Sequence record: OZ346158.1
Source: a phage
DNA: 64,000 bases
Strand: one strand, 5' to 3'
Below, in pieces: positions 7,754 to 41,747 of the stretch (position 1 is the first letter of the stretch; each line of letters opens with the position of its first letter). The notes under the pieces are model-generated. The model worked only from the letters and a program-made list of their open reading frames with translations, was not told where the DNA came from and ran no database searches. The position numbers were made by a program, and so were the translations under genes.

Positions 7754-8107
7754 GATGAGTACCAACTTCAGGTCCCTGACACACCTAAGTATAAGACTGT
7801 GTACACCTTCGACACAATTGAAGAATTGGAAGCATTTAAGGCAGAGCAGGAGGCCAAACTTCATGTGTTCGACGGTCATAAGTACAAAAAGGCACGCAAG
7901 GATGAAAACGGAAACGAAGTGGTTGACAGAGACGGAAACACGGTGTACGATCCTATCCTGAACGATGACGGAAAGCTTGAACTTATCTGGAGCCCTGTGG
8001 GTGAAATGGTGGTGCATTGCTTCTGGCAAGCTTCTAAAATGATGGGCGTTCCATTCCAGATCACAGGTGAATACTTGTGCGGTCGTAACTGGGGTGATTG
8101 TCACTAA
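7754..8107 (+). CDS. DNA polymerase, family A, exon 2 (C-terminal part)
   Basis: Ends ...GRNWGDCH, the family-A C-terminal signature (T7 gp5 ends NWAICH as recalled); proposed junction gives ...KRGWYD|DEYQLQV resembling motif C WVHDEIQV. Confidence 0.7.
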   Translation, partial: DEYQLQVPDTPKYKTVYTFDTIEELEAFKAEQEAKLHVFDGHKYKKARKDENGNEVVDRDGNTVYDPILNDDGKLELIWSPVGEMVVHCFWQASKMMGVPFQITGEYLCGRNWGDCH

Positions 8108-8156
8108 TGTAAACTATCAGCACAGGGAGGTGCTGTTGAGCAAAGAGGAGACTTTT

Positions 8157-8441
8157 ATGGTAGTAGAGCCAACAAAAACATTTACATCCATGACCATTCC
8201 TGTTATTATGCAGGTGGAGTGTGTTCAGGTATCTCAAGTGTGGCCTGGCACCAAAATCCCAACAGGGCCTGATTTCTTTCAGGTTGGGAAAGTGTACAAT
8301 GTCTGGAAGGCACCAGATTGTTACCCTTTCATTAAAGATGACCGTGGGATGCTGTGGTATCTTGGAAATGACTTGACACTGCACCTTGGGAATGCTATTA
8401 TTGCAGTATTCAGACTTAACAAGAAGGAGACCGATCAATGA
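8157..8441 (+). CDS. hypothetical protein
   Basis: ORF track 8067..8441 overlaps polymerase end; internal ATG at 8157 preceded by aagaggag. Confidence 0.5.
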   Translation: MVVEPTKTFTSMTIPVIMQVECVQVSQVWPGTKIPTGPDFFQVGKVYNVWKAPDCYPFIKDDRGMLWYLGNDLTLHLGNAIIAVFRLNKKETDQ

Positions 8442-8665
8442 CGACTTTGGTTAAAGCTACCTTTGTAGAAGAAAAGATGACAGACCTGTCATTCTTTAAA
8501 GAAGGAAAGACCTACGAGGTTTATTACGATAAAGCTCGTGCAAACAAAATGATTAAAGACGAGGAAGGGGTTGCCTGGTATATCTCTCACCTGGCAAACG
8601 GTGAGTATCATATCTACGGAACCACTTTGCTTGCCAAGTTTGTAGTTGTTGAAGAGGACCTATGA
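8438..8665 (+). CDS. hypothetical protein
   Basis: 75-aa ORF, start overlaps upstream stop (ATGA). Confidence 0.5.
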   Translation: MTTLVKATFVEEKMTDLSFFKEGKTYEVYYDKARANKMIKDEEGVAWYISHLANGEYHIYGTTLLAKFVVVEEDL

Positions 8666-8856
8666 AAGTAAAGTATCTTGCTGAAGGTATGAATAGGTAT
8701 TTTACCCTTGGTGAAGAATATTGGCCCTTTACAAACAACGGTGATGTCTACGTGAAAGATAATTTCGGCACGCCGTGGTTTCTGCACTCTAATGGGCTGG
8801 GATACTCCATTTACTGCGGTGCAGTGAACAACACAACTCTTGCAGAGTTCGTTTAG
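8662..8856 (+). CDS. hypothetical protein
   Basis: 64-aa ORF, start overlaps upstream stop. Confidence 0.45.
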   Translation: MKVKYLAEGMNRYFTLGEEYWPFTNNGDVYVKDNFGTPWFLHSNGLGYSIYCGAVNNTTLAEFV

Positions 8857-8866
8857 AGGAGGTAGG

Positions 8867-9238
8867 ATGTTAGTAAAAGGTACCCATACAGTCAAACAAC
8901 GTATTGAAGTTGAGATTGATGATTGTGAGCTGAAGCATATTTTACGGTCATGCTCCAACGTTTTGCTCCTTAGTATTCTCCAGGAGCGAGCGGAGAACGA
9001 GTTCTTAAATGCACTGGCAGGCCGCCCTGGTGATTTCTGTGTGCGTAAGCGTGGTGACAACAAGTCATGGCTGTGGGAGATAGACGCAGAATGGGATTAC
9101 CATAAAAATGAGGGTATAGATGAACCTATTCGTGAATTGACGGACAACGAGGTTCAGATGTACAATGAAGTTTGTCAGTGGGCAAAAAGTCAACAAACTT
9201 ATCTTGATCCTTGGTGGATGATCGAAAATAGTCGTTGA
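8867..9238 (+). CDS. hypothetical protein
   Basis: ORF track 8840..9238; ATG at 8867 preceded by gaggaggtagg. Confidence 0.5.
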   Translation: MLVKGTHTVKQRIEVEIDDCELKHILRSCSNVLLLSILQERAENEFLNALAGRPGDFCVRKRGDNKSWLWEIDAEWDYHKNEGIDEPIRELTDNEVQMYNEVCQWAKSQQTYLDPWWMIENSR

Positions 9239-9314: not shown

Positions 9315-9569
9315 ATGAAAATTACTCTGAAGCCAGAATGCGTTGAAAATGACCGAGCTTTTAAAGATTGCACAATCGGTGCAATTTATGAAGCAGAGTT
9401 TTGTGAGAACCCTTTGGTAAAAGCCCTTCTGGAAGAAGGGGCCCCTTTATCACAAGAAGAGATCGATGAGCTGGAAAACTCAGCACAGTGCCTTACCTTT
9501 AAAGATGATGAAGGAGACTCTGTCTGGTGCACTGTTAATGAAGTCGTTTTTGTAAAACCTGAACATTAA
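9315..9569 (+). CDS. hypothetical protein, paralog A (D-x-AF-x-DCT family)
   Basis: 84 aa; shares KPE/DY-x-E-x-D-x-AF-[KR]-DCT and D-[DE]-G-D-x-V-[WC]-CT with next gene; RBS aaggagac. Confidence 0.55.
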   Translation: MKITLKPECVENDRAFKDCTIGAIYEAEFCENPLVKALLEEGAPLSQEEIDELENSAQCLTFKDDEGDSVWCTVNEVVFVKPEH

Positions 9570-9632
9570 TACTTGACAACAGCGATAGGACCTAATACAA
9601 TGGTCCTATCAAAACGAAAGGGGACCACAACA

Positions 9633-9905
9633 ATGACCAAACAATACCAACGAATTAAAGCCAAGGTTAAGCCAGACTATCTGGAGAAGGACTCTGCTTT
9701 TCGGGACTGCACAGCTGACAAAGTTTACACAGGGGCCGTCCTGCTGAACGATGAACTTGAAGTAGATATTCTTGGTAAAGAGGCCACTATTAAGGACGAC
9801 CAAGGCGATTATGTTTGCTGCACCACACGTGAGCTAGAAATCTTAGAATACTTCGGTGAAATCTTCACCTCTCTTGATGATTACTTAGATGATGAGGAAG
9901 CGTGA
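9633..9905 (+). CDS. hypothetical protein, paralog B (D-x-AF-x-DCT family)
   Basis: ORF track 9573..9905; ATG at 9633 after gaaagggga; sequence similarity to 9315..9569 product. Confidence 0.5.
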   Translation: MTKQYQRIKAKVKPDYLEKDSAFRDCTADKVYTGAVLLNDELEVDILGKEATIKDDQGDYVCCTTRELEILEYFGEIFTSLDDYLDDEEA

Positions 9906-16739: not shown

Positions 16740-17200
16740 ATTTCTAAAATGGATTTCCTCCTTTTGATATTTTACCTACCAGGATATTTTAAAATCCTTA
16801 GAAAATCAGAAAATGGATCGAAAACTAAAATGGATTTTTCAGAGCAGGCACGACGAGATGAACCACTCATCCTATCGTCTGCACCATATTCCAGACCACC
16901 ATTACAGATTTCCCGCACATGCTCACATCCTTCTACTAGAACTTCCCCCACTTACCCTTGACCTTTTATAGTAATAATCCAACCACTACCTTGAAGTTGT
17001 GGCGCAGCTTTCCAAGTACTCGATCTGTTTTTCGTTTCAAAGATTTAATTTTCTGAAAATTTTTCTCGATAAATTTCTCAGTACTCGATCTGTTTTTCGT
17101 TTTCTGAATCGGATTTTCTGGAAATCGTTCCGGCTCTCGACCTGAAATTTTTGGGGACGAAATCGATTTTTCGTTTTCAGAAATGGATTTTTAAAATTTC
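16740..17200. repeat. AT-rich iteron-like direct-repeat region (AAATGGAT and (T)CTCGATCTGTTTTTCGTTT families)
   Basis: AAAATGGAT at about 16747, 16811, 16827, 17192; CAGTACTCGATCTGTTTTTCGTTT exact at 17014 and 17079 with degenerate copies through 17180; no ORF. Confidence 0.6.
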
Positions 17201-17295
17201 TATATGGGAATATTTTAGTGGATACTATTTTATAGGAAATTGTTACGGAGGGTAATTAGCGTGCTAATTAAATTTATTAAATGCGAGGAGTTCTC

Positions 17296-23885: not shown

Positions 23886-24236
23886 ATGAAAGTAAAACTA
23901 TATTACCTTAATGAGCTTAACCCCCTTGCCCAGGTCCGCGCCATGGCTAATACCTTGATTTGTGAGAAATCTGTATATTGTGTTGAGCTTAACTCCATGC
24001 GTGAACGTCTCAAAGGTGGTTACTTTGACATCCATGCTGCAATCAACGGCCTGAATATGGAATTTATCCGCTTACGTAACAGCCGCCAGAATCTGGGAAG
24101 AATGGAACAAGATCCGGCCCACCTTCGTAAGCTGGTTATTGAAAATCATCTAATGTTTAATGCCGATGGTGATTATTACCATTTTCACCGTAAACGCTGG
24201 TACCGTAGCGGCAATATAGGAAAGAATGCAAAATAA
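23886..24236 (+). CDS. hypothetical protein
   Basis: 116 aa; followed by terminator. Confidence 0.5.
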   Translation: MKVKLYYLNELNPLAQVRAMANTLICEKSVYCVELNSMRERLKGGYFDIHAAINGLNMEFIRLRNSRQNLGRMEQDPAHLRKLVIENHLMFNADGDYYHFHRKRWYRSGNIGKNAK

Positions 24237-24271
24237 GGCCCCTGGCAGGGCCTGCAGCGATATAATCACAT

Positions 24272-24306
24272 AAAGGCTATGCGGTTGCATAGCCTTTATT
24301 ATTTTG
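24272..24306 (+). terminator. rho-independent terminator
   Basis: AAAGGCTATGC-GGTT-GCATAGCCTTT followed by ATTATTTT. Confidence 0.7.
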
Positions 24307-24444
24307 GCGTTACAGCGGCCCCCAAGGCGCTTAAAAAAATTTTTAAAGAAGTACTTGCATCAAGTCCTACAATATGGATAATAAAGGGTGTCGGGGGGGC
24401 GGTGAGGCCTCCAATCATTAACCGGATAGATAGGAGTTAAAACC

Positions 24445-24729
24445 ATGGCTATTGTTACCGTTGGCGATGTAGTAGAAATGGAAGCCAAATACTTAAAAGC
24501 TGGTATGCATATCATACGGAATGATCAAGAATTGTTATTAACCATGGTTGAATATAATCCCGGTCAGGATTATCCAAGCATTGACTACTTTTTCCAGTAT
24601 GTTGATGAAGAATTAAAAGAGGATGAGGCTTATCAGGGTGAATTTTGTAATTTCTTTTGCCCTGATGAGGTTGTAAAAGTTATCTATCAACCTGGCGTAC
24701 CTTTCCCGCTGCACGCTATCAACAAATAA
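24445..24729 (+). CDS. hypothetical protein
   Basis: 94 aa; RBS ATAGGAGTTAAAACCATGG. Confidence 0.55.
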   Translation: MAIVTVGDVVEMEAKYLKAGMHIIRNDQELLLTMVEYNPGQDYPSIDYFFQYVDEELKEDEAYQGEFCNFFCPDEVVKVIYQPGVPFPLHAINK

Positions 24730-24784
24730 ACCTGGCGGGGCCGAAAAGGCCCCCAATTATGAAAATAAAGAGAGGCAAATCATC

Positions 24785-25018
24785 ATGATGGAACAAATTA
24801 AACGCGCCGAGGCTATTAATGGCAACGTGATCTATTTTGTCAGCAAAAACGAAAAAGGCGTACCCTATGCGGCGGTAATAGTACAGCCTGACGGCGATTA
24901 TTGGTGTACTGTGTACGGCGCTTATTCTTTTGGGCGTCCAGTGCATGATAAAATTTTGAAAGTAGCGAACCCTACCGGGAAAAATATCACAGCAGAAAAA
25001 TTTTTTGAAAATAGTTGA
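24785..25018 (+). CDS. hypothetical protein
   Basis: 77 aa; RBS aaagagaggcaaatcatc. Confidence 0.55.
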   Translation: MMEQIKRAEAINGNVIYFVSKNEKGVPYAAVIVQPDGDYWCTVYGAYSFGRPVHDKILKVANPTGKNITAEKFFENS

Positions 25019-25042
25019 CATGACCATATAAGACTGTAGTAT
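25015..25042 (+). promoter_or_regulatory. sigma70-like promoter (TTGACA-16-TAGTAT)
   Basis: Upstream of a 59-aa ORF at about 25090..25269. Confidence 0.5.
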
Positions 25043-25779
25043 ATAAATCAAAGGGGCAAGCCCCACCAACCACAAAGAGGATAAAAATCATGGCTATTAT
25101 TGCAAAGACTGAGATCGTAGGCTTGGATTCTATTCTCCTCGCATATGAGGAAGCTATAGAAATGTATGTGGTTTCCTATGGTGAGTATATCCGTGAATAT
25201 AAATCTATTGATCTGGCTTTTGAATGTTATATTCGCCAGGTTAATAAAGCGTACGATGATTATCGTTAAAATAGTTTGAAAACAAACAACCATCTTACAA
25301 AGCATAATACATAAGGCGGTGGAATGGTCCGCCACCTGGAACAAGAAGAGGAAAACAAAATGAAACAGAAATTAATTGATGCGGTGATCCTGGTTATTGC
25401 CCTGGGTATTGGCCTGATTGCAACCATGGCTAATGTGATCTTGTCTTCCAACGGTATCGGGTGAGGTTGGCAAATGATCACTAACAAAACAGGCAAGCGG
25501 AATTTTTACTCAACTTACAGATCGGCAAGCCTGAGATCTGGTATTGCACTAAAACACCACGTGACGAAATGAAAGACTTCACCGCCACGCTGCAACGGGT
25601 AAAGATATCCATCACGCAGAAAAAGGCCTTGATAGTGGTGGAAGGTGAGATCCCTCAAACCGTTGTTATAGTTGAGCGTACAGCATAGTTTAATTTATAC
25701 CGATACCCGAAAATTAACCAACAAAGCATAAACAGGCGGTTACCGCCGCCTTAAACGTAGCAGAAAGAGGATAGACACA

Positions 25780-26064
25780 ATGAAAAAGATGATCGCAGTG
25801 GTTGCCCTGGTTGTTGGACTTAATGCGCCTGTAATGGCTAAAGAGCTGGCAAAAGAGGTTAATCTAACGGATATTCATGCCGTCAATCGAATCGGGGTTA
25901 CTTATCGCTTATGCCTTGCCGCTAAAACTTTTAAGGACGGCACGACAGAGTACTACGGATTCGAAGGTGTCCGGTGCGGTGAACTTGCTCGCGACCTTAA
26001 GGAAGATCCAGACCTGGAGGATCTGCCCATCACCGTAAACGGGAAAACTTACGTAAACCGTTAA
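25780..26064 (+). CDS. hypothetical secreted protein (signal peptide)
   Basis: N-terminus MKKMIAVVALVVGLNAPVMA is signal-peptide-like; RBS aaagaggat. Confidence 0.55.
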   Translation: MKKMIAVVALVVGLNAPVMAKELAKEVNLTDIHAVNRIGVTYRLCLAAKTFKDGTTEYYGFEGVRCGELARDLKEDPDLEDLPITVNGKTYVNR

Positions 26065-26212
26065 CCATGATAAAGATAATCATCACCTTGGCATCGTGGC
26101 GGGATCGCTGGCGCTCTTTCTCCTTATGGTTAGGTATGTGCTGATCGGTATTGTCCTGGTAGTCAGTGATCTATTGGAAACGGTTGGCACCTTGTTTTAA
26201 AGAGCGGTAAAA

Positions 26213-26404
26213 ATGAATATCGAACAAGTTAGAAAGGTATTGGCGGTACTGCGTTATCATAATCATAGAAAGGTCATAGACGATCCTGATTATGTCGATT
26301 CAAGCCTGGAAGGGGATACACTACAAGCCATAAGTAACATGCAAGAATTGCTAAAGCGCATGACAGAGAAAAACCGACCGGACTACATAGGCGAAAAAAT
26401 ATAA
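26213..26404 (+). CDS. hypothetical protein
   Basis: 63-aa ORF. Confidence 0.45.
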   Translation: MNIEQVRKVLAVLRYHNHRKVIDDPDYVDSSLEGDTLQAISNMQELLKRMTEKNRPDYIGEKI

Positions 26405-26615
26405 TCCTTATAAACTACAAAACAGGGCTTGCAATGGTCCTGTTTTTTGTTATACTTGTTTCACGGCAGGCGCCTGGCGACGGGGGAGACAATCACCGGG
26501 TGTGCCTGCTATATAAAAACTATAAAAACCGTTGACATCTGCCAGGTGGTGGGGTAGCATTTATCTCGAAGGGGGCAAAAGCGCCCACACAACAACCGGA
26601 AGAGAGGAAAACGCC

Positions 26616-26888
26616 ATGTTAAGCTGGATTAACCAAGAAGTTGAATCACGTTTCAATGCTATTTGGGATCTCATCGAAAAAGAGGACGGAACATCAAGCC
26701 CTTATCTCAATAATCTTGAATTCCATTTCGTGGAAGCGATGAACGCAGAACATGATCACGAAGGTGGTGCGGATGAATTCGCTAAAGGATATGGCTTCAA
26801 CAATGCCAACGAAATGATCGAGGCGGTTGTACTCCAGGCTGAGGAAGATTATCAATTAAAAACGCTTGAATTCTGCCGCCGTAAGTAA
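26616..26888 (+). CDS. hypothetical protein
   Basis: ORF track 26532..26888; internal ATG after gaagagaggaaaac; upstream TTGACA at about 26532. Confidence 0.5.
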   Translation: MLSWINQEVESRFNAIWDLIEKEDGTSSPYLNNLEFHFVEAMNAEHDHEGGADEFAKGYGFNNANEMIEAVVLQAEEDYQLKTLEFCRRK

Positions 26889-26950
26889 TAAGATAATGAC
26901 ACGGGCCAAAAGGCCCACTAAACAAAAACCACATAAAGAGGAAAAACATC

Positions 26951-27214
26951 ATGAAACGTCTTGATCAGCTCAAATTAGTTCAATATATGGCTTATCGTGT
27001 TCTTGAAGTCCAGAAAGGTAGCAAAAAAGAGGTTTGCGAGAAAGCTTATAAGATCTTCACTCGCAAAAAAGATGATTGGATGTTACGCCAGACCAAAAAA
27101 GCCGATATCTTGGGGTACCTGGAAGAAGAGATCCGGCTTGAAGAGCAAGAAGAGATCCGCCGCAGTGAGGCAGATTATCAGGCAGCTTGGGAAAACTGGA
27201 TGAATAACAAATAA
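26951..27214 (+). CDS. hypothetical protein
   Basis: 87 aa; RBS aaagaggaaaaac; preceded by GGGCCAAAAGGCCC hairpin. Confidence 0.55.
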   Translation: MKRLDQLKLVQYMAYRVLEVQKGSKKEVCEKAYKIFTRKKDDWMLRQTKKADILGYLEEEIRLEEQEEIRRSEADYQAAWENWMNNK

Positions 27215-27280
27215 TACAACAAGTTACATGGTCAGGGGCAATAAAGCCCCTTGATCACATAAAAATTATGCCATCCTTGG

Positions 27281-27309
27281 TTGACAGGGATCGGCAGTTT
27301 TGCTATATT
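27281..27309 (+). promoter_or_regulatory. sigma70-like promoter (TTGACA-17-TATATT)
   Basis: Upstream of gene 27359. Confidence 0.55.
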
Positions 27310-27358
27310 CTTTTTTGAAGGGAAGTTGTAAGAAAATTAACTAAGAGGTAAAAACACC

Positions 27359-27778
27359 ATGAACATTAAATCTAATAATCCGGCATATAGCTTTGATAAC
27401 GCTTTTTGTCACGGTCCGGCGGCGAAAGGATTCGAAATCGATGGTAAACTAGTTATTGTCAATGTTGACGGGGAAGAGGTTGCAGTATATCCGGTGGCAG
27501 ACGTTAAAAGCCGTCTACAATGCCGCATCGATGTTACCGCCTACCAGCTTGATCCGGTCCGGGTAGTTGCCCTGGTCCTGGAAGAAGAAATTAAAGCAAT
27601 GCACCACAGCAACAAGTTTATTGGTGACGCTCAAGATAATATGAAGGTGTGCCGCCATAAAGTTAATGAAGTGCTTAAAGAATATGGCTTTAAAGATCTG
27701 ATGATCAAACGTGAGGAAAAATTCCGCTACCGTAACGACCTGGCAAATCGGATTTTTGAAATATACGAATCATTATAA
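27359..27778 (+). CDS. hypothetical protein
   Basis: 139 aa; RBS aagaggtaaaaac. Confidence 0.55.
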   Translation: MNIKSNNPAYSFDNAFCHGPAAKGFEIDGKLVIVNVDGEEVAVYPVADVKSRLQCRIDVTAYQLDPVRVVALVLEEEIKAMHHSNKFIGDAQDNMKVCRHKVNEVLKEYGFKDLMIKREEKFRYRNDLANRIFEIYESL

Positions 27779-27796
27779 TTTCTTAACTGAATTATC

Positions 27797-27824
27797 AAGG
27801 GGCTTAAAGGCCCCTTTCTTTTTG
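27797..27824 (+). terminator. rho-independent terminator ending the + strand block
   Basis: AGGGGC-TTAAAG-GCCCCT followed by TTCTTTTTG. Confidence 0.7.
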
Positions 27825-28544
27825 TCTGCTCTTCTCCTACCATAAACGGCCCTACCTGGCAAGTGGAATAATTGACTAGCCATCAATCCCACATACTGTA
27901 CAAATATACATGGAAAATAACTATTGCATAATTTTTCATTGTGTGGTAGCAAGTCCATTTTTACCCGTTTTCTCTCCCAAAAGTGCACGTAATGCCGCTA
28001 TTGCACAAATTTTAACCTGATGCACATCTCCAATATCTTGTCAACAACTAAAAATCTTTATAAGTCATACACTTACACAGCATCGAAAGCGTGTTCTACG
28101 CGAAAAATCGAGTATAACTATAGCCGCCAGATCTCAGAATTCACGTACGCACGCCATTCTATAGCCTGCAAAGTATTTATTCCAACCACAGAATAACGGA
28201 ATAGTCAATACCTGCATAAAATAATTATTCGTGTAAACTGCATAACATAAATCAGCTCAGGTGTCAACATTTTTCGTAAACAGTCCGAAATTATCACGAT
28301 GAGTTATCATAAACAGAGAAATCTTTAGTCGTCTAATGTTTACTGTACATTACTATACTGACTGGAATCATTAGATGACTAATACAATAGAACAAATTAA
28401 TAATGTAATTATTTTACCTGTAACAATAAGGCAACTATGCAAACGAATGGCATGGCGCGACGGAGTCGCGACATAATATAAAAGCAGTAACCATCACCCC
28501 CGTGATAGTTTGTCTGCAAACTATTAATCAGATCATAGTTGCCT

Positions 28545-28584
28545 TGTATTTAGTTAATCATGACATAACAAGCAAGGCAACTAT
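28545..28584. repeat. 12-bp perfect inverted repeat ATAGTTGCCTTG / CAAGGCAACTAT with third copy at about 28429
   Basis: Read directly; hairpin or operator-like, at the 3' end of the - strand gene block. Confidence 0.6.
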
Positions 28585-28591
28585 AGATATA

Positions 28592-28849
28592 CTAAACCAT
28601 AGCTTCAAAAGGAGTCATGAACGAATAAACGGCATCATCATCTGCTTCAGGGAATGCTCCCAAAGACTTCATATCTGAACCCTTGACAAATACAAGGTTT
28701 TGATCAAAGGCTTCTTGGGGGTCAATCCGATACATATTTCGTAGAATATCGCTTACCTCCTCATCAAGAGGTGAGTATGCTGTGCACGTTTTTCCGATCA
28801 AGCTTTGAGAATCAGGGTATCCACCTGAAGTTTTAAAATAAACAATCAT
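28592..28849 (-). CDS. hypothetical protein (possible distant member of small paralog family)
   Basis: 85-aa ORF. Confidence 0.45.
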   Translation of the reverse strand: MIVYFKTSGGYPDSQSLIGKTCTAYSPLDEEVSDILRNMYRIDPQEAFDQNLVFVKGSDMKSLGAFPEADDDAVYSFMTPFEAMV

Positions 28850-28940
28850 ATAGTATCACCTCTGGTAAGAGATTGGGATTCCTTTCCCACAAATAATTAC
28901 AAATCTTCCTTATCGAGGAAGTATGCTAATCCAAGCAGGA

Positions 28941-29210
28941 TTATTCCTCTACAATCTCATACACATCAGGAGTTACAATCAATTCTTCTCCGTTACCCGG
29001 TGCAACAAACACCACCAAACCTTCAGGTGTGTGCTTTTTAGCCATCTCGATAACATCTTCTCGCAGAGCTGGCTCCATCAGATCAAAACCTTCACCCAGG
29101 GCATCACGAACCACCTTCATATAGTCCACTGGTTGTGCTTCAACAATCATGCCTTCAACCAGTCCACAGTTTTTGTCTGCCAGCTCAGTTTTGAATAATT
29201 TAATTTTCAT
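28941..29210 (-). CDS. hypothetical protein, MK[VI]K-x-[LF] paralog family member
   Basis: Starts MKIKLF, ends EIVEE; RBS gaggag; family resemblance to 30467, 30711 and 34360 genes. Confidence 0.55.
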   Translation of the reverse strand: MKIKLFKTELADKNCGLVEGMIVEAQPVDYMKVVRDALGEGFDLMEPALREDVIEMAKKHTPEGLVVFVAPGNGEELIVTPDVYEIVEE

Positions 29211-29347
29211 TTAGAGGTCTCCTCAATTATTTGATATTAATAGCCGTAACCTAACACATTAACTACAACTGCGATTGCAAACATAATTTCAAAGCATGCA
29301 ATCTCTACATTTGGGACTAATTTCTTAATCACACCCATTGTAGCACC

Positions 29348-29665
29348 TCATTTTCCAAAGTCAATCTTTACTTTGCCTTTCCCCTTACCTTTCTTTCCAC
29401 CGCATTTAGCCAGCTGACGTGCTGCAACATCTACCATACGGTCAGTTGCCTCGTAAGCATCACTACCTTTAGCCTTGGCAATAACTTCTTTTCCAGAATT
29501 GTCAAAAATGAACGCCATAACTTCCTGGTGATCATTTTCAACTTTTACACTCACACGTGCATAGTTGGCAGAGGGGTGCAAACGCTCCAGTTTAGACATT
29601 TTGTTGGAAATGAAAGACACCATACCTTCAGTGATTTCTACGTTGCCAGTGATTTCAATTTGCAT
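29348..29665 (-). CDS. ribosome hibernation-promoting factor / RaiA (YfiA) family homolog
   Basis: MQIEITGNVEITEGM...KLERL...ARVSVK...D...ARQL parallels bacterial HPF/RaiA (MQLNITG...EITEAL...KLE...KHK) as recalled. Confidence 0.7.
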   Translation of the reverse strand: MQIEITGNVEITEGMVSFISNKMSKLERLHPSANYARVSVKVENDHQEVMAFIFDNSGKEVIAKAKGSDAYEATDRMVDVAARQLAKCGGKKGKGKGKVKIDFGK

Positions 29666-29747
29666 AACGTGTTCCTTTTAAAGAAGAGGGAACCAAACCC
29701 TCTTTGAAAACAATGATACTAAATCTGAAGCGTTGTGTCAACAGTTT

Positions 29748-30038
29748 TTACAGATTGTTGTCGATAGTTTTTAAAATATCCACAGCAAGATCTGCCATTT
29801 TTCGAACATACTCTGCAAACTCAACAGGATCCTTGATCAAAGAATTCACAGGGTCGTACCCTAGAGCGTTCAAAATGGCTGCAGCATCTACAACCTTCTC
29901 ATCATTTGCGAAGATCTCTCCATCAAACTTGTAGGTCCATTTTGAGTCAATCTTGGCAGGGAAGGATTGGTCAACGCTTGTTACACCATCCTTTTTAAAC
30001 GCTCCGGTGTTATCAGTGTCCAGAACTAAATCCATCAT
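29748..30038 (-). CDS. hypothetical protein
   Basis: 96-aa ORF. Confidence 0.5.
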   Translation of the reverse strand: MMDLVLDTDNTGAFKKDGVTSVDQSFPAKIDSKWTYKFDGEIFANDEKVVDAAAILNALGYDPVNSLIKDPVEFAEYVRKMADLAVDILKTIDNNL

Positions 30039-30055
30039 GTTAGTACCCCACTGTT

Positions 30056-30454
30056 TCAGTTTAGCTTTTCTTCAACAACCCCATAGCTCGGGACAGAGTC
30101 AAGAGCTTTCTGGTTTAAAAGTGGTGTAGCAGAATCTGCAAACGGTGTCCAAGTTTTTGTTCTGGCATTCCAGTAATGCTTCACTCTGGAATCTGGATGC
30201 ACTATAACAAAAACTTTTTCACTTGTCAACACATTAATTTCTTCTACACCCTTGCTGATAATTTCTCCGTCATAGCCCCCAGTCTGGTATCCTTCGTACC
30301 AGGTTCTTGCATAGGCATAGCCAGCTTGCCAGCATGCAGCCTCCTCCGAGGTGGAGACTACGTAGAAGTCTTTCTCAAATTCTGGAATACGCCCTTGCTT
30401 TATGCTCCAAGCTCCGCGAATTTTCATTGTAACTTTGAACAGTTTATTTTTCAC
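30056..30454 (-). CDS. hypothetical protein
   Basis: 132-aa ORF. Confidence 0.5.
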   Translation of the reverse strand: MKNKLFKVTMKIRGAWSIKQGRIPEFEKDFYVVSTSEEAACWQAGYAYARTWYEGYQTGGYDGEIISKGVEEINVLTSEKVFVIVHPDSRVKHYWNARTKTWTPFADSATPLLNQKALDSVPSYGVVEEKLN

Positions 30455-30466
30455 AACGGTTACCCA

Positions 30467-30721
30467 TCACAGCTCTACAATATTTGCATCTGACCCTACC
30501 CCAAAGGCATAATAGGACTCTTCCCCGAAATAATATTCAGGTGCACCAGCGGTGATCAGGTCTGCTCCTAAGATAAACACTACGTTGTGGCCTACATAAC
30601 TGTGATGTTGCCGAACAGGATCATCCCACGGCAACCCTTCAAAGTATACCGCAGGAACGACCTTTCCCTTCAGGAAGGATTGTCCCAAGTAGACGTTAGA
30701 ATCAAGAATTTTAACCTTCAT
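30467..30721 (-). CDS. hypothetical protein, MKVK-x-L paralog family member
   Basis: MKVKILDSNVYLGQ...GADLITAGA...IVEL. Confidence 0.55.
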   Translation of the reverse strand: MKVKILDSNVYLGQSFLKGKVVPAVYFEGLPWDDPVRQHHSYVGHNVVFILGADLITAGAPEYYFGEESYYAFGVGSDANIVEL

Positions 30722-30938
30722 GATTGTCCTCCACTATCTCTACATCCTCACCTAGGGCAAAGTTGTAGGTCCACTGACTGTCAAAGCATTCCTGAGATGC
30801 ACCAGCGGCAATAAGATCTGCCCCTTTTATTTTTAAAAGGTCGGGGTAATCTTCGTTAGGGACAGCAGTAAACACTTTCCCCACTAAGGGCTCCTGACCA
30901 ATATAGAAGCTCGAATCTAAAACTTTAACTTTCATCAA
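30711..30938 (-). CDS. hypothetical protein, MKVK-x-L paralog family member
   Basis: MMKVKVLDSSFYIGQ...KGADLIAAGA...EIVED. Confidence 0.55.
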   Translation of the reverse strand: MMKVKVLDSSFYIGQEPLVGKVFTAVPNEDYPDLLKIKGADLIAAGASQECFDSQWTYNFALGEDVEIVEDNHEG

Positions 30939-31222
30939 CGGTCTCCATCAGGTGGTTGTGGGACGTAAACACTGTTACGAATATCGTCCGCAGTATAGTA
31001 ATAAGTGTCTCCAACCCTATCTCTGGCTGCAATGTACTCTGCTATACCAATAAGTGCCATTGATTTGGTGGCGTATCTTCCCCACTCGTTAGCTCCCCAG
31101 TAGAATTTAGACCAGTAAGGAATAAGACCGAACAAATATACCTTTTGACGAACTTCCCAGTAAGTGCCTTTTCCGACAAGTTTAAACTCGACTTCACTAC
31201 TGTTAATCTTTTTCATTATCAA
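30935..31222 (-). CDS. hypothetical protein
   Basis: 95-aa ORF in overlapping-stop chain. Confidence 0.5.
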   Translation of the reverse strand: MIMKKINSSEVEFKLVGKGTYWEVRQKVYLFGLIPYWSKFYWGANEWGRYATKSMALIGIAEYIAARDRVGDTYYYTADDIRNSVYVPQPPDGDR

Positions 31223-31515
31223 TCTCCCTCTACCGTGGTAGGATTGTCAGTAAGAAATTGAGCATTGGCTGGAGGCACGCCTGACATTTTCCACACAACC
31301 ATAAGTTTGTAACCAGGCACTCTATTAAGTGCAGATCGAGTAGAGTTTGTGCACGTATACTTTCGCTTTCCAAACCCGTTCTCCATCATAATCCAGTACC
31401 CAGTATCTTTGTCACCAGGTATCGGTAGACCACCTTCATCAACCCACTGAATGGACCACGGCACGATGGCTACAGCTTTATATTTAAACTTTTTAAACCA
31501 CTCAAAAAGTTTCAT
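31219..31515 (-). CDS. hypothetical protein
   Basis: 98-aa ORF. Confidence 0.5.
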   Translation of the reverse strand: MKLFEWFKKFKYKAVAIVPWSIQWVDEGGLPIPGDKDTGYWIMMENGFGKRKYTCTNSTRSALNRVPGYKLMVVWKMSGVPPANAQFLTDNPTTVEGD

Positions 31516-31610
31516 AATTCAGCCTCGCATAGACATAATCACTATAAACAGGCAAACAATGAATCCGAATGCCACGCCACCCATAAACGTTAATATTGAT
31601 GCAATCATAG

Positions 31611-31796
31611 TCAATCAGCCTCGCTTGGCAACTCTTCTACCTTAACATGCCGAAAAGTGTTACCGTAATGGTTGATCCATGACATCAGCTCGCTTTCTTG
31701 CTCTTCCTCTGGGATGAACTCTCGAATGCTGACAAGTTTTAAGAAAACCCAATCACAATCTGCACCCATTCTACCAGACAGGCAATAGTGCTTCAT
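31611..31796 (-). CDS. hypothetical protein
   Basis: 61-aa ORF. Confidence 0.4.
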   Translation of the reverse strand: MKHYCLSGRMGADCDWVFLKLVSIREFIPEEEQESELMSWINHYGNTFRHVKVEELPSEAD

Positions 31797-31814
31797 AAAA
31801 CCCTCCCGCCTGGT

Positions 31815-32009
31815 TTAGAATATTGCTTCTTCCATTGCGCCTGAGAGCAACAAAGAGGTGATCTGGCTAACATTCATCTCAGACTCTACTTCCTCCCCTT
31901 TGAAAGGTTCGCGGCAGAATAGGACTGTTTCAGGACTTTTACTTCGAACAATATAATACAAATCATTCAATGTGTTGTAGTAATAAGTGTTAAAACGTAA
32001 GTTTTTCAT
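31815..32009 (-). CDS. hypothetical protein
   Basis: 64-aa ORF. Confidence 0.4.
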   Translation of the reverse strand: MKNLRFNTYYYNTLNDLYYIVRSKSPETVLFCREPFKGEEVESEMNVSQITSLLLSGAMEEAIF

Positions 32010-32293
32010 TTTCTAGTCCTCTTCTTAGATTTTTGGGGAGAAACGCTTTCTGCAATACGAGACAGACGTTCTTCTGAAGCCTTACCTACTCCAGGTTTTT
32101 TGAGTGGATTATCTTTATGACCACAATCCAACTGGATATTGGATACCTCTCCAACTTTGTAAGTCAATTCTAGCAAAAGGTTGTCGTCCTTGTCAAATGT
32201 TTTTACGATAAATTTTTTATCGTTCTCCTGAACTTCATATCTGGTACCTGCAGTATACAGCATGGTGCCATCAGCATAGGATATCCAAATCAT
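32006..32293 (-). CDS. hypothetical protein
   Basis: 95-aa ORF, start/stop overlap with neighbours. Confidence 0.5.
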   Translation of the reverse strand: MIWISYADGTMLYTAGTRYEVQENDKKFIVKTFDKDDNLLLELTYKVGEVSNIQLDCGHKDNPLKKPGVGKASEERLSRIAESVSPQKSKKRTRK

Positions 32294-32637
32294 TGAGCCT
32301 CCTTTTGCTGCAACAGCATTAACTCTTTGTTAGAAATCTTTACTGCTGTTTTTATTGTTCCATCTTCACGAAACCACGACCAGAACTCTACAGTGTCACC
32401 ACTATCAAGTAAAGCATGCCCATGGTAAAAATCTTTGTCCTTAGACAGTTTCTCATCTATATCTGCATCAACACATTCGTGATCCATAGCATTTTGCCTG
32501 AACGCATCGGTTATGCCAATGCACGCCTTGCTCTCAAGACTGGTATATCCGATATCTTTTAATTCAGTTTCCCAAGTCCAGTACCCTATAAAAGCTAAAA
32601 CAGCTACCCACAGTAATAACGTTTTAATCTTTGGCAT
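32290..32637 (-). CDS. hypothetical protein with N-terminal signal/TM segment
   Basis: MPKIKTLLLWVAVLAFIGYWTW hydrophobic N-terminus. Confidence 0.5.
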   Translation of the reverse strand: MPKIKTLLLWVAVLAFIGYWTWETELKDIGYTSLESKACIGITDAFRQNAMDHECVDADIDEKLSKDKDFYHGHALLDSGDTVEFWSWFREDGTIKTAVKISNKELMLLQQKEAQ

Positions 32638-32699
32638 TCTCTCTACCTCTTTCTTAGTTTATTTCACTATGGCACATCCTTTGTGCCATATCTCAACTA

Positions 32700-33170
32700 C
32701 TACTTAAATAGTAGTTCAAAATAGTGCAAAATTAACAGAAGTTGAACTACACCTAGTGCAACGGCGAGTATGTTAATCTTAGAATCGAAAAACTTCTTAA
32801 CTTTTACTCTAAAAGGTTCCTTAATGTCCTTTACGATCCTATCTATAGATGACCTCATATCTCTGATTACCATCCTGAACATTAAAGACGGATGCTCCCC
32901 CATCTCTGTAACGGAATCGAAAACATACTCTCTTCGGTCATAAGGGCCGCCAGCTCTGCGTATTAACCTCTCCACAGAGACCTCGAACGTCACACCTGTA
33001 ACGTAATCATCTATAACAAGTCGTGACGGGTCTTTACCTTTACTGTCAAGAGGTATCAAAGTTATCTTTCCAGATTTTGTTAAAATTTCCCCTTTTTCAA
33101 GCAAGGTGTACCAATGCTCTCTGCCAAGACTGTTGAGGCACGTTTTTACATATTTAACAAACATCGTCAC
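32700..33170 (-). CDS. hypothetical protein with C-terminal TM segment
   Basis: 156 aa; C-terminal LAVALGVVQLLLILHYF. Confidence 0.5.
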   Translation of the reverse strand: MTMFVKYVKTCLNSLGREHWYTLLEKGEILTKSGKITLIPLDSKGKDPSRLVIDDYVTGVTFEVSVERLIRRAGGPYDRREYVFDSVTEMGEHPSLMFRMVIRDMRSSIDRIVKDIKEPFRVKVKKFFDSKINILAVALGVVQLLLILHYFELLFK

Positions 33171-33370
33171 CCCTCATCACACGTCTGATATAACCACTCT
33201 ATGAAATCTTGATACCATTCGCCCTCTGAGCGCTCCGTAGGCCAATAATCTTCACCCTCTCGTGCATTAAAATCTGAGTATTCAACTTTCCACTCCTTTA
33301 CCAGCTCGTGGAGAAGGTTTTCAGCCTGTTCTAAAGATTTATTTTTTACCATTGCTGTCTCCTTTTTCAA
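33167..33370 (-). CDS. hypothetical protein
   Basis: 67-aa ORF; a likely ATG start lies a few codons in, after aaaaaggagaca. Confidence 0.45.
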   Translation of the reverse strand: MKKETAMVKNKSLEQAENLLHELVKEWKVEYSDFNAREGEDYWPTERSEGEWYQDFIEWLYQTCDEG

Positions 33371-33571
33371 GATAGTTATACATCAGAACTGCACCACCTA
33401 AGATGGCTACCAGTAACAATATCCCAGATAGCATCTCAATAAACATGGCTTGAAACACTGGAAGGTCTCCCTAAATTAACGCACCATTTTAAATACATGC
33501 TCTTTTCCCATAAAGGTGCCTGGCTAAGATCTGCGTAGAACGCAATCTCTTTAAGAACAGTATAGATAGTT

Positions 33572-33799
33572 TTAGGTGCGGTCTCCATCCCTACTCTCCT
33601 TCCTGATATTCTTGTAGTAATCAACTAGGCACATTATTACGATGAAGATAACAACAGGCCAAAAAGGTGCAGCAGTGATGATGGTGATAAAATCATCAAA
33701 CTTCACCCTTCGTCTGGACACGATGCATACACCTGTCAAGAATACCGCTGTTATAACGGACATTACCAGGTAACCTATTAGCACAACATTTATACTCAT
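33572..33799 (-). CDS. hypothetical small membrane protein (2 TM)
   Basis: Two hydrophobic helices (VVLIGYLVMSVITAVFLTGVCIV, AAPFWPVVIFIVIMCLV). Confidence 0.5.
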   Translation of the reverse strand: MSINVVLIGYLVMSVITAVFLTGVCIVSRRRVKFDDFITIITAAPFWPVVIFIVIMCLVDYYKNIRKESRDGDRT

Positions 33800-33829
33800 T
33801 GGTCCTCCCTTTGTAGGTTAAATTGTATA

Positions 33830-34363
33830 CTACAAATGGTCGCTGAGGGTGTCAAGAAAATTATCCCGTTCTTTCTCAGAGTTTTCATGTGTGTAGCTGA
33901 AAAACATATCGAGAATAACCTTATTGATATATTCCAGCTCCTCTGTGTTCAGATGCTTAGCAGGATCTACAATGACATCCCAAATATCATACAGACCACA
34001 CTCATGATACCCATAACGCCACTCAATTGTCAAGCTGAGCGGCAAATCTTTACCTTCACAAACAACCTTCCATCTACATATGTTGGTATCTGGTCGTACC
34101 TGTGCACGGTACACCTGCACAAAATCCAATTTGAATTTGAGGTACTCGTCATACAATTTAAGCACAAAGCTCTCGATTTGTGGAGACACTTTTGCAGCAA
34201 ACTGTGCGTATTTGTACTTGCACTGGATGATCTTTCTGCGTTTTGCAGTTAAATTTTTTGCCGCCAGTTGTTCTTCAGTGTATCTCCACCTACGATCAAC
34301 AAACGCAACAGGGTCTTTGTCCCCATAGAGGTCTTCCCAGTTAATCAGAAGCATACCTGTCAC
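33830..34363 (-). CDS. hypothetical protein
   Basis: 177-aa ORF. Confidence 0.55.
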   Translation of the reverse strand: MTGMLLINWEDLYGDKDPVAFVDRRWRYTEEQLAAKNLTAKRRKIIQCKYKYAQFAAKVSPQIESFVLKLYDEYLKFKLDFVQVYRAQVRPDTNICRWKVVCEGKDLPLSLTIEWRYGYHECGLYDIWDVIVDPAKHLNTEELEYINKVILDMFFSYTHENSEKERDNFLDTLSDHL

Positions 34364-34593
34364 TCCTCCACAACTTCAAGGCCTTTACCGCCTCGCTCTG
34401 GCAGATTACTTAAAGATAGGTAATACATATAATCAGGAGAGATCCTGCCAGACTCTGCACCTGCAGCTAGTAAATCCTTCCCTTTAACCAGGACAACATT
34501 CTCGTTTGCAGATAGCCGTTTTGCTTCCACAATTTTACCAACACAGTCAACCAAGGAAGGGTACCCTAAATCTGTAAGAAATTTAACTTTCAT
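34360..34593 (-). CDS. hypothetical protein, MKVK-x-L paralog family member
   Basis: MKVKFLTDLGYPSL...KGKDLLAAGA...EVVEE. Confidence 0.55.
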   Translation of the reverse strand: MKVKFLTDLGYPSLVDCVGKIVEAKRLSANENVVLVKGKDLLAAGAESGRISPDYMYYLSLSNLPERGGKGLEVVEE

Positions 34594-34630
34594 GCTACCT
34601 CCTACCTACCGTCCCTGGTAAGATAAATTA

Positions 34631-35029
34631 TTACTGAACAGAGCGCGGTGCTGGGAAGGATAACTCTTCTAAAGAGAAGATTTCATTTCCTACCACCCAA
34701 GTTGCTGGGTCATCTGGATCAACAGGTTGGATAATCATTACCTCATCCGCCTCGCACACACGTTTCCCACCCATAGTAGCGTCAGCCACTAACATACGCG
34801 GCTCTTCAGAAATGCACAGGTAGCCACCTCGGCCCACTGTTCCTTCCACGGGATCCTGCCCTTTGACCACAATGAATACCTTCTCTCCTGTGGAGATATT
34901 ACTTTTCACACTAACAGTTTGACCAACTTTAGATGTACCGATCTTGGTGGCTTCAAACATTAAATCCCGAATTACTGTTGCATAGTTGCCGGACACTTTC
35001 TTACCTTCTTTAGTAATCTCAATCTTCAT
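34631..35029 (-). CDS. hypothetical protein
   Basis: 132-aa ORF. Confidence 0.5.
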   Translation of the reverse strand: MKIEITKEGKKVSGNYATVIRDLMFEATKIGTSKVGQTVSVKSNISTGEKVFIVVKGQDPVEGTVGRGGYLCISEEPRMLVADATMGGKRVCEADEVMIIQPVDPDDPATWVVGNEIFSLEELSFPAPRSVQ

Positions 35030-35301
35030 AATCTAGGCTCCTTAAATGAATCTATGTAATCAATTAAATCCCAAGCATCGCGATGGGCTGTCAGAGGGTA
35101 TACTTCTCCGAGAGGGATCATAGCAATAAGTCTATCAAAAACCCAGTCTGGACGCAACATTTTATGGTGATATTCCCACTCACCTTCCACAGATTTTTTC
35201 TGAGTGATCAGGATCTCTGTGTAGTGTTTCGCCTGTCTTGAGTAGATTGAAAATGACTTGTACATAAATGACCCCCTCTTGTTGAAAACAACAATACACA
35301 A
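35026..35301 (-). CDS. hypothetical protein
   Basis: 91-aa ORF. Confidence 0.5.
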   Translation of the reverse strand: MCIVVFNKRGSFMYKSFSIYSRQAKHYTEILITQKKSVEGEWEYHHKMLRPDWVFDRLIAMIPLGEVYPLTAHRDAWDLIDYIDSFKEPRL

Positions 35302-36167: not shown

Positions 36168-37217
36168 TTAAGCTTCTTCGACAATTCCTGCACCCAGGAT
36201 TTTTTCATTGAGCTCTTTTGCTGTTTTAATAATATTGTCCACCAGACGCTTGCGAGTCTTATCTTTCACCTTAACCTCTTCACCGCCGTTCAGAGTAGTC
36301 TTCAATTGAGACAGAATATCCTGAAGTTCAACGACAGAGAATCTCTGCAGATCTTCTGAAGTAATCTCACTCAGGGCAATTCTGACGGTCTCGCCACTTT
36401 CCATCTGCAGATTCAGGAACACAGTGTGAACATCACCTTTCGAACCACCCGCTTTTGCAGATTCAACAGCATGAACTAACTCATCTAAAGATGTGCACTG
36501 GTGAATCTCCGGAAGACCTGCTTCACCTAACACGCCTTCTTCATCACCTTTTGCCAGAAGCTTTTTCGGTTTTTGTCCGTTCTGGATGCGTTGTATGTTG
36601 CCTTCATCCAGAATAATAGCTCCAGTGCGTGCTGCCAGCTCTTCTCCGTCCAACCACACTTCGCCACCAGCTGTGATGGATGCGATCTCATCTTCTGTCA
36701 GCACCCCACCGTAGTATTTTTCGATCAGGCGTTCAAAACGTTTTTTCCAGTAGCTGACCTGAGTATTCATGTTCACACCGTTACCATAAGTGCCACCTTG
36801 ATAGTAGTGGAACATAAACTCTGTGTCCGGAGCCACAGTACGTTCTTTACAACCAAGCCATAAGATTGTTCCAGCAGAGCAGCACATCCCTTCAGCATGT
36901 GCAACAACGCTTGCCTGAGACTCTCGGAATGCCTGCAGATAAGCCATTGCAATGTGCACGCAACCCCCAGGACTATTGATGATCACCCGAATGCTTTCTT
37001 CCGGCTGAGCCATACGGATCGTCTGCAGACGAGACATATGATCTTGTAAGTCTTCCAAATCGTCGATATAAAGAACGTGGTCAACAACAGGTGTTGGGTA
37101 GCTGTATGTTTCCATGATACCGCCCGGCATACCGAACATTTTATTACTCATAGGTTCGAAACCGTTCTGTTTTTCTTTCATGCCGTGTACCATGGTTCTG
37201 CGAGGTGTTAAATTCAT
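36168..37217 (-). CDS. ClpP-like serine protease
   Basis: IINSPGG and GMCCSAGTIL match ClpP catalytic-region motifs (INSPGG ... G-x-AAS-x-G); long C-terminal extension. Confidence 0.7.
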   Translation of the reverse strand: MNLTPRRTMVHGMKEKQNGFEPMSNKMFGMPGGIMETYSYPTPVVDHVLYIDDLEDLQDHMSRLQTIRMAQPEESIRVIINSPGGCVHIAMAYLQAFRESQASVVAHAEGMCCSAGTILWLGCKERTVAPDTEFMFHYYQGGTYGNGVNMNTQVSYWKKRFERLIEKYYGGVLTEDEIASITAGGEVWLDGEELAARTGAIILDEGNIQRIQNGQKPKKLLAKGDEEGVLGEAGLPEIHQCTSLDELVHAVESAKAGGSKGDVHTVFLNLQMESGETVRIALSEITSEDLQRFSVVELQDILSQLKTTLNGGEEVKVKDKTRKRLVDNIIKTAKELNEKILGAGIVEEA

Positions 37218-40935: not shown

Positions 40936-41747
40936 TGTGATGAATGGAGTCTGCTGTCTCCTCCCTGTGTTTCCACAGGGCCAGACTATCTCTTACTCTA
41001 CTTCAATAAGATAATAACCCTTTATTGTGAGATGCTTACCTTCGGCATTTCCTTCGATAGCCCTATGAACGTTACCTACGTTCAAATTTAAGGCTTTTGC
41101 ACAGGCATAGAGTGAAGGATATTCACCAACCAAGGTTTTACCTTTGTATGCCTGCACTTTCCTATAGCACTTACCTGGACAAAGTCCTGTTCGGAAAGCA
41201 TGTCTCTTATTATCTTCCGGCAAAACCCACTCTAGGTTAGACGGATGATCATTCAATGTATTGCCATCTTTATGATTCACTTCCCAGTTTTCAGGGTCTA
41301 CTGGGACATCTGGCAAACAATACAAGGCAACAACCCTTGAGGTTTGGATTCGAATCTTTTTGCCTTTGTGGTTGAAAGAGTACATATAACGGCGTTTAAC
41401 ATGCTTGTTACCTTTTCCATAACCTCCCCACAATATTGGGTGTAGCATTCCACGTTTTCCGTATACGTTTCCAACCTCATCAATCACATAGTTTGATTCT
41501 TCACCATTAAGAATGATCTTTTTCATAGAGCCTCTCCATTTCGAAGTTAGTATTTCAACTAACCCCTACACTACTTGGTTCAGAAATGTTTGTCAAGCAT
41601 CTCTGCCTTTCGTTAGTCGTTACAACCGTTCCAACTCCTGTAAGAACTAGTCACGGGATTGGCATAGCTTTCGCCTTAGCGTTCCCCGTTAGCCGGATTT
41701 ACCGACCCCTCTTATGAGGTTAGGAGAGTTTTACAACGGCCAGTTTG
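40936..41747 (-). mobile_element. group I intron in nrdD (boundaries approximate)
   Basis: On - strand: R-like GUAACGACUAAC (about 41610-41622), S-like GAGAUAGUCUGG (40981-40992), P9 hairpin CCCTGTG-GAAA-CACAGGG (40963-40980); HNH ORF embedded. Confidence 0.7.
40993..41526 (-). CDS. HNH homing endonuclease, intron-encoded
   Basis: SRVVALYCLP...VNHKDGNTLNDHPSNLEWV HNH motif; RBS ggagagg; between the two nrdD segments. Confidence 0.85.
   Translation of the reverse strand: MKKIILNGEESNYVIDEVGNVYGKRGMLHPILWGGYGKGNKHVKRRYMYSFNHKGKKIRIQTSRVVALYCLPDVPVDPENWEVNHKDGNTLNDHPSNLEWVLPEDNKRHAFRTGLCPGKCYRKVQAYKGKTLVGEYPSLYACAKALNLNVGNVHRAIEGNAEGKHLTIKGYYLIEVE

Follow-up and report, generated by a model that had tools for sequence, protein, structure and literature searches.

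What are the very small genes that lie in one region of an rV5-like phage genome and resemble one another at both ends of their products, and what might they do for the phage? The question is raised by positions 28592-35029 of a 64,000-nucleotide stretch of phage DNA (record OZ346158.1; the whole stretch is referred to as the window), in which an earlier note had listed four genes of this kind as certain copies of one diversified small-protein family and a fifth as a possible copy. We call them genes A to E, with the coordinates collected in the table below. Judged by full-length alignments and profile statistics, B, C, D and E are four paralogues of one real protein family, whereas A, counted among the certain copies, belongs elsewhere. 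The source phage is a coliphage of the genus Vequintavirus: region 28500-35100 is 99.5% identical to Escherichia phage rV5_ev168 over 99% of its length and matches 126 phage records, nearly all of them Vequintavirus.

The proteins encoded by B, C and D aligned end to end in BLASTP, with identities of 42% for B and C (E-value 5e-16), 31% for C and D (2e-8) and 30% for B and D (6e-4), and each matched the hidden Markov model (HMM) of PHROG cluster phrog_5009 over profile positions 1-69 or 1-74 of 74, with E-values of 9.5e-32, 3.2e-38 and 8.3e-36, respectively. Gene E reached the same profile at 1.2e-4 across positions 1-58. A second HMM, derived from B, C and D only and searched against the 1122 six-frame open reading frames (ORFs) of the window picked out gene E at 1.1e-5 and, besides it, nothing below 0.7; gene E scored 21.6 bits, against 9.5 for the best shuffle, and none of 2000 shuffles in which the first five residues were kept equalled it. 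The copy that had been called possible is a member on these figures, three of the four certain ones stand, and the alignment, HMM building and database search that the earlier note had proposed return a significant full-length profile for B, C, D and E. The diversified multi-copy family that it described is borne out both by these statistics and by the presence of several copies per genome in two further, unrelated lineages.

Invariant or near-invariant columns run through B to E and their relatives, comprising the MK[VI]K start in strand 1, a G-K pair before strand 2, the motif G-x-[DE]-[LM]-x-x-x-G-A after strand 3 and a Tyr in strand 4. The most conserved residues (in D numbering, Tyr11, Gly19-Lys20, Gly38-x-Asp40-Leu41, Gly45-Ala46 and Tyr57) are common to the paralogues and to distant members, and gene E, with an insert of ~20 residues between strands 2 and 3, retains the G-K pair, the motif in the form KGSDM..LGA and the conserved Tyr. 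The sequences of the paralogues diverge in three places: between strands 2 and 3, where 0-25 residues are inserted; in the loop that follows the GA motif; and in the stretch leading up to the last strand. The paralogues are ~30-40% identical as proteins and share no DNA-level repeats beyond matches of 11-12 nt; the duplications behind them are therefore old by this sequence measure.

Each of the five genes is preceded by a Shine-Dalgarno site at the usual distance. For C, the earlier coordinates (30711-30938) imply a TTG start at 30938 and one extra residue; the gene is right but the start at ATG 30935 is likelier, because GGAGA precedes that ATG and annotated orthologues agree. The start of B overlaps the end of C by 11 nt, the start of C overlaps the stop of the gene upstream, and the stop of D overlaps the start of the next gene, an arrangement compatible with translational coupling at all three. 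Ratios of nonsynonymous to synonymous substitution rates (dN/dS), computed from the window against phages APECc02 and ECP32, were 0.03-0.23 for every gene, with values of 0.07-0.23 for B, 0.05-0.12 for C, 0.10 for D (against ECP32) and 0.05-0.06 for E. Given the Shine-Dalgarno sites and these ratios, we conclude from sequence comparison that the candidates are conserved coding genes under purifying selection.

Gene A has the MKIK start and the IVEE end in common with the family and nothing else, so that a likeness limited to the termini, which would speak against a family, is found for A alone and is excluded for B, C, D and E. Against the B/C/D HMM, A gave an E-value of 6.8 and 2.9 bits, a score that 124 of 2000 shuffles reached, and the PHROG search gave no match between A and phrog_5009. 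In hhalign, the profile of the A family aligned with the family at a probability of 6%, over residues 1-29 only, and with the insert-bearing E/B subfamily at 0.4%. The family signature columns are absent from A or out of register: its motif-like GEGFDLMEPA lies in a predicted helical insert before strand 3, whereas the family motif comes after strand 3. The predicted secondary structure of A is strand-strand-helices-three strands, and its model (predicted local distance difference test score, pLDDT, of 90) is a small barrel into which 30 helical residues are inserted; a PGNG hairpin replaces the motif helix, and the chain closes with the IVEE end. The best match of this model in BFVD by Foldseek was a 95-residue ECP32 protein (E-value 3.5e-3), from length and sequence pattern most likely ECP32_00145, for which BLASTP against A was not significant (E-value 0.45); against a family member the template modelling (TM) score was 0.51, with an E-value of 0.73. 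A was accordingly rejected as a member on the HMM search, the two profile-profile comparisons and the shuffles, its predicted structure being that of a generic small barrel, and on the model it could at most be a remote structural cousin of the family.

Several GenBank and RefSeq records name gene A 'sigma 54 modulation factor' (also L001 at 6347-6616 and L006 at 8725-8994). This identity was rejected as well, as A has no match to Pfam PF02482, aligns with the neighbouring HPF homologue at a BLASTP E-value of 30 and differs in predicted secondary structure from the HPF fold; the label seems to have been carried over from the true HPF gene next to it. That HPF homologue, which the earlier note had placed among the small genes, is genuine by its Pfam score. 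The 132-residue gene at 34631-35029, at the right edge of the noted region, was also tried as a member and rejected by PHROG (where it belongs to phrog_5748), by the HMM and by shuffles.

The AlphaFold2 model of D, built from a 20-sequence alignment, had a mean pLDDT of 95.5 and a predicted template modelling score (pTM) of 0.82. It places strands at residues 2-5, 21-27, 30-37, 56-60 and 72-76 and helices at 12-17 and 38-43, the second helix being the G-x-D-L-x-x-A-G-A motif that follows strand 3. On this model, family members are predicted to fold as a five-stranded SH3-like small beta-barrel, in which the MK[VI]K start would form strand 1 and the [EI]-V-E-E end the last strand. Foldseek searches of viral models with D retrieved only uncharacterised phage proteins (from CM1, RB49, Sf20, VpV262, NBD2, SRT8 and Merlin); the top BFVD match was an 87-residue protein of Shigella phage CM1 (E-value 1.3e-4), which has the length of the gene E orthologues in relatives. 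A profile search of all PDB sequences found nothing at E-values up to 10. B to E are single-domain, soluble proteins of 65-90 residues, and nearly all members are acidic, with isoelectric points (pI) of 4.1-5.8 and net charges of -1 to -10.

Beyond this phage, the family is rare even in very large databases and was seen here only in phages and in E. coli phage or prophage contigs: a search of 5.8 billion proteins gave 34 clusters at E-values up to 1e-3, and one of 1.84 billion gave 26 representatives. The latter figure includes P0053, a protein of 1604 residues that was rejected as a homologue because its match is a false positive arising from a low-complexity repeat. Multiple copies per genome occur in three unrelated lineages: Vequintavirus, with four copies in this phage; Krischvirus KFS-EC/RB49, with five or six members clustered near dam; and the Vibrio podophage VpV262 (Vipivirus), with three (ORF27, ORF31 and ORF32). 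A fifth vequintavirus member, APECc02 gp080 (110 residues; HMM E-value 2e-5, hhalign probability 90%), lies just downstream of gene E in relatives and is missing from this phage. Tlsvirus LL5 has one copy near a polynucleotide kinase gene, as a weak match (tblastn E-value 7e-3, HMM E-value 8e-3), and temperate mEp021-type phages and E. coli prophages have one between Q and holin, a slot that we read as moron-like. No neighbour gene was found to be conserved across the lineages (the contigs of distant metagenomic members being only 1-2 kb long), and each copy may therefore be regarded as an autonomous single-gene unit. By analogy, the multi-copy spread and the slot between Q and holin resemble the usual behaviour of accessory host-interaction genes.

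The copies also appear to recombine with one another. Two- and three-domain fusions of family domains were found in P0046 and P0049, and nothing matched the additional C-terminal portions of P0047, P0049 and P0051. Natural chimeras combine an N-terminal half from C with a C-terminal half from B (P0015 and P0016) or a D-like N-terminal half with a C-like C-terminal half (P0028). Their junction lies at GADLIAAGA, the conserved motif in which B and C have an 11-nt identity; the chimeras come from vequintavirus-like contigs of roughly 133 kb and from short contigs. In some relatives B and C are collapsed to a single gene. At the sequence level, the chimeras suggest unequal recombination between paralogues, and fusions and chimeras together suggest interchangeable, possibly oligomerising modules.

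Features of the region, with positions in the window
Feature	Position	Strand	Description
Member B	30467-30721	minus	84 residues; 14-residue insert between strands 2 and 3 (DDPVRQHHSYVGH); GGAGGA upstream
Member C	30711-30935 (ATG start)	minus	74 residues, MKVKV...; orthologues annotated at 225 nt
Member D	34360-34593	minus	77 residues, MKVKFL...KGKDLLAAGA...EVVEE; reference for the structure model; AGGAGG Shine-Dalgarno site upstream
Member E	28592-28849	minus	85 residues here, 87 in relatives; divergent subfamily phrog_13920
Gene A	28941-29210	minus	89 residues; separate small family phrog_11868; not demonstrable as a family member
HPF/S30AE ribosome hibernation factor homologue	29348-29665	minus	PF02482, 48.9 bits (cut-off 23.7); neighbour, non-member

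Annotation gives little purchase on function. No member matched any Pfam family at E-values up to 1, catalytic families included; NCBIfam, PADLOC and PDB-sequence searches gave no match for the family either, so that across these four resources none of the described anti-defence or defence families was hit, and every database name carried by a member is 'hypothetical'. The earlier note had not recognised the family, which is right as regards Pfam, NCBIfam and PDB and wrong in that the proteins are already clustered as PHROG 5009. Already known, then, are this unnamed cluster and the general familiarity of multi-copy sets of small accessory genes in large virulent phages; new are the revised list of members, the connection of phrog_5009 with phrog_13920, a confident predicted fold, a signature motif, multiple copies in three lineages, and the fusions and chimeras.

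A putative anti-defence or host-takeover role is plausible; the earlier note had spoken of host interaction or anti-defence. The form of it that we favour, while giving it somewhat less than an even chance, is that the members are expressed early and bind stoichiometrically to host or defence proteins; the barrel would be the scaffold, and specificity would lie in the variable loops. They would be made early, from host-type promoters, because sigma-70-like promoters on the coding strand exceed those in shuffled sequence (34 against 22 +/- 4.4, with four 11-of-12 matches). Acting alone or as homo- or hetero-oligomers, they would present the conserved barrel as a common support, on which the three variable segments described above would set the target of each paralogue. 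Individually they would be dispensable in the laboratory, since the fifth paralogue is missing here and B and C have merged in some relatives. Several points weigh against this proposal. Strong purifying selection within sets of orthologues is unlike an ongoing arms race; the most conserved residues are common to all paralogues and would fit a single ligand at least equally well; the promoter scan is a match to a consensus and no evidence of timing; and the literature that we searched held nothing on these genes and nothing linking the family to defence inhibition. A bolder version, possible but doubtful, is that the family is an undescribed phage and prophage domain superfamily, repeatedly amplified in unrelated phages as multi-copy sets and as multi-domain proteins, which serves as a modular counter-defence or host-takeover scaffold, each paralogue or hetero-oligomer of adjacent paralogues (e.g. 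B with C) neutralising a different host factor.

The main rival to stoichiometric binding of different proteins takes up the shared residues directly: all paralogues, probably as oligomers, would use a Tyr/Lys/Asp/GA face to bind the same kind of small ligand (for instance a metabolite or a nucleotide that acts as an immune signal), and additional copies would raise the capacity or the range of ligands. Tad2 and Acb2, which act as sponges of this sort, are proteins of ~90 residues encoded among early genes, and a similar size, the existence of tandem fused domains and the identity of Y11, G19-K20, G38-x-D40-L41, G45-A46 and Y57 across paralogues and distant members would all suit such a function. 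Conserved Gly, Ala, Leu and Tyr in a 70-residue barrel are, however, most simply core and turn residues, and no member matches any Pfam family, those of the known sponges included; we consider this explanation unlikely. Less likely still is that the barrels are KOW- or Sm-like factors whose binding to RNA, ribosomes or RNA polymerase would modulate translation or transcription in concert with the HPF homologue. A true HPF homologue does lie within 5 kb of the genes, but in Krischvirus, VpV262, LL5 and mEp021 the family genes have no HPF neighbour, and no neighbour is conserved; the proteins have no KOW or Sm match in Pfam, and their acidity is unfavourable for binding RNA or DNA.

A role in the virion or its assembly, as decoration protein, chaperone or internal protein, seems very improbable. 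Nearby small genes are labelled 'virion structural protein' in APECc02 (gp094) and mEp021 (gp41), but those labels sit on other genes and not on family members, the family genes lie in a block with nrdD/nrdG, PhoH and a methyltransferase rather than in a morphogenesis module, and their copy number is variable, with copies lost or fused in relatives. That the resemblance reflects chance or start-context bias, with no real family behind it, describes gene A only; as regards B to E its chance is negligible, since the full-length alignments, the HMM and PHROG statistics, the shuffle tests, the signs of purifying selection and a confidently predicted common fold exclude it.

The candidate genes, all on the minus strand and interspersed with other small unknown genes, come last, at the 3' end, in a long gene block that runs leftward, and the GC skew changes sign at ~28 kb of the window. 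In annotated relatives the block also carries nrdD/nrdG, PhoH, a ClpP-like protease and a DNA methyltransferase, and around the family genes it looks like an early or accessory block. In the window, ORF 36168-37217 (minus) encodes a 349-residue protein with a ClpP-like protease domain (PF00574) at residues 59-168 and a C-terminal extension of ~170 residues without a match; it stands in the replication and nucleotide-metabolism block, not beside capsid genes.

Immediately downstream of gene E, ~6.4 kb present in other vequintaviruses is missing here, with the junction at 28585-28600. Similarity to relatives on the gene E side starts at 28595-28596, the left flank (24000-28595) has its counterpart in rV5_ev147 displaced onward by ~6.4 kb, and the product of gene E ends in ...EAMV* (85 residues) here and in ...EAMVVG* (87 residues) elsewhere. 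The missing segment carries APECc02 gp080 and an A-like gene for a 95-residue protein, and the junction was not found in any of the best database matches listed. The intergenic stretch after the gene E stop (28428-28584) holds three exact copies of CAAGGCAACTAT/ATAGTTGCCTT(G), two of which form a perfect 12-nt inverted repeat (28535-28546 and 28573-28584) with a 26-nt spacer; the element has six matches in the window at up to one mismatch, against 1.5 expected. This repeat at the deletion junction could be a regulatory site or a hairpin.

Other small paralogues occur on the opposite arm of the window, on the plus strand, as adjacent pairs at 9315-9569 and 9573-9905 (31% identity over 93 residues, E-value 4e-9) and at 8067-8441 and 8438-8665 (E-value 3e-4). 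Their products have MK... starts and acidic, ...VVEE-like ends, and neither pair matches the family HMM. ORFs 7052-7558 (plus), which has an HNH-type look (NHKDGNKYNN...), and 40996-41565 (minus) have a 48-residue segment in common at 48% identity and are probably copies of a homing endonuclease. Overlapping ORFs on the two strands at 16969-17255 match one another with 54-58% identity, suggesting that the DNA carries a degenerate internal repeat; Tandem Repeats Finder reported nothing there. In the databases, ~18-24 records of the MG0656xx series ('Campylobacter phage C15, D1, C14, A12a ...') are 94-100% identical to this phage in the region, suggesting that they are mislabelled or contaminating coliphage genomes.

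Among therapeutic and model coliphages, rV5-like phages are common (the BASEL collection includes examples), and the majority of their ~200 genes are without known function. Against this background, four or five anonymous ORFs become one family with a confident predicted fold, a signature motif and a range over at least five phage groups, while a non-member (A) is singled out and its misleading GenBank label corrected. Independent amplification in unrelated virulent phages, together with a moron-like slot in temperate ones, makes the family a reasonable compact target for host-takeover and counter-defence screens. If it proves to be a scaffold for binding proteins, or a sponge, a new fold would be added to that repertoire; as things stand it is an uncharacterised accessory family that would not surprise a phage genomicist.

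Compared with known systems, the family is the same as PHROG 5009, to which B, C and D correspond over their full length and which gene E and all 25 aligned distant members also match. This cluster and its satellites (phrog_13920, 13367, 8603 and 7345) are all labelled 'unknown function'; PHROGs give them no fold, function or description and do not record that paralogues have expanded, that multi-domain fusions exist or that 5009 and 13920 are linked. The PDB structures retrieved were all SH3-like barrels (eukaryotic SH3, the KOW domain of Spt5/NusG, the C-terminal domain of PhnA, PsaE and OapB), which the barrel predicted here would resemble in size and in its five strands. The family differs from them in having a helix in the first loop and the GxDLxxAGA helix after strand 3, and it matches neither canonical SH3 in Pfam at E-values up to 1 (PF00018 and relatives, with their ALYDY / WW / SNY peptide-binding residues) nor any profile of the KOW domain (NusG/Spt5/L24); the modelled likeness would be one of fold class only, and would speak neither for homology nor for a function in binding peptides or RNA. 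HPF/RaiA (S30AE, PF02482), whose fold is beta-alpha-beta-beta-beta-alpha, bears on gene A, which adjoins the true HPF gene and is of similar length but lacks its Pfam signature.

Phages are known to make small early proteins that inhibit host or defence proteins stoichiometrically, among them T7 Gp2, Gp5.9 and Ocr, T4 Arn and Dmd, Tad2 and Acb2. To our knowledge, none of these inhibitor families occurs as a set of four to six copies per genome, and none has sequence similarity to the family described here. The likeness that we see to them, drawn by analogy, lies in small size, acidity, an early-accessory location, single-gene mobility and putative dispensability.

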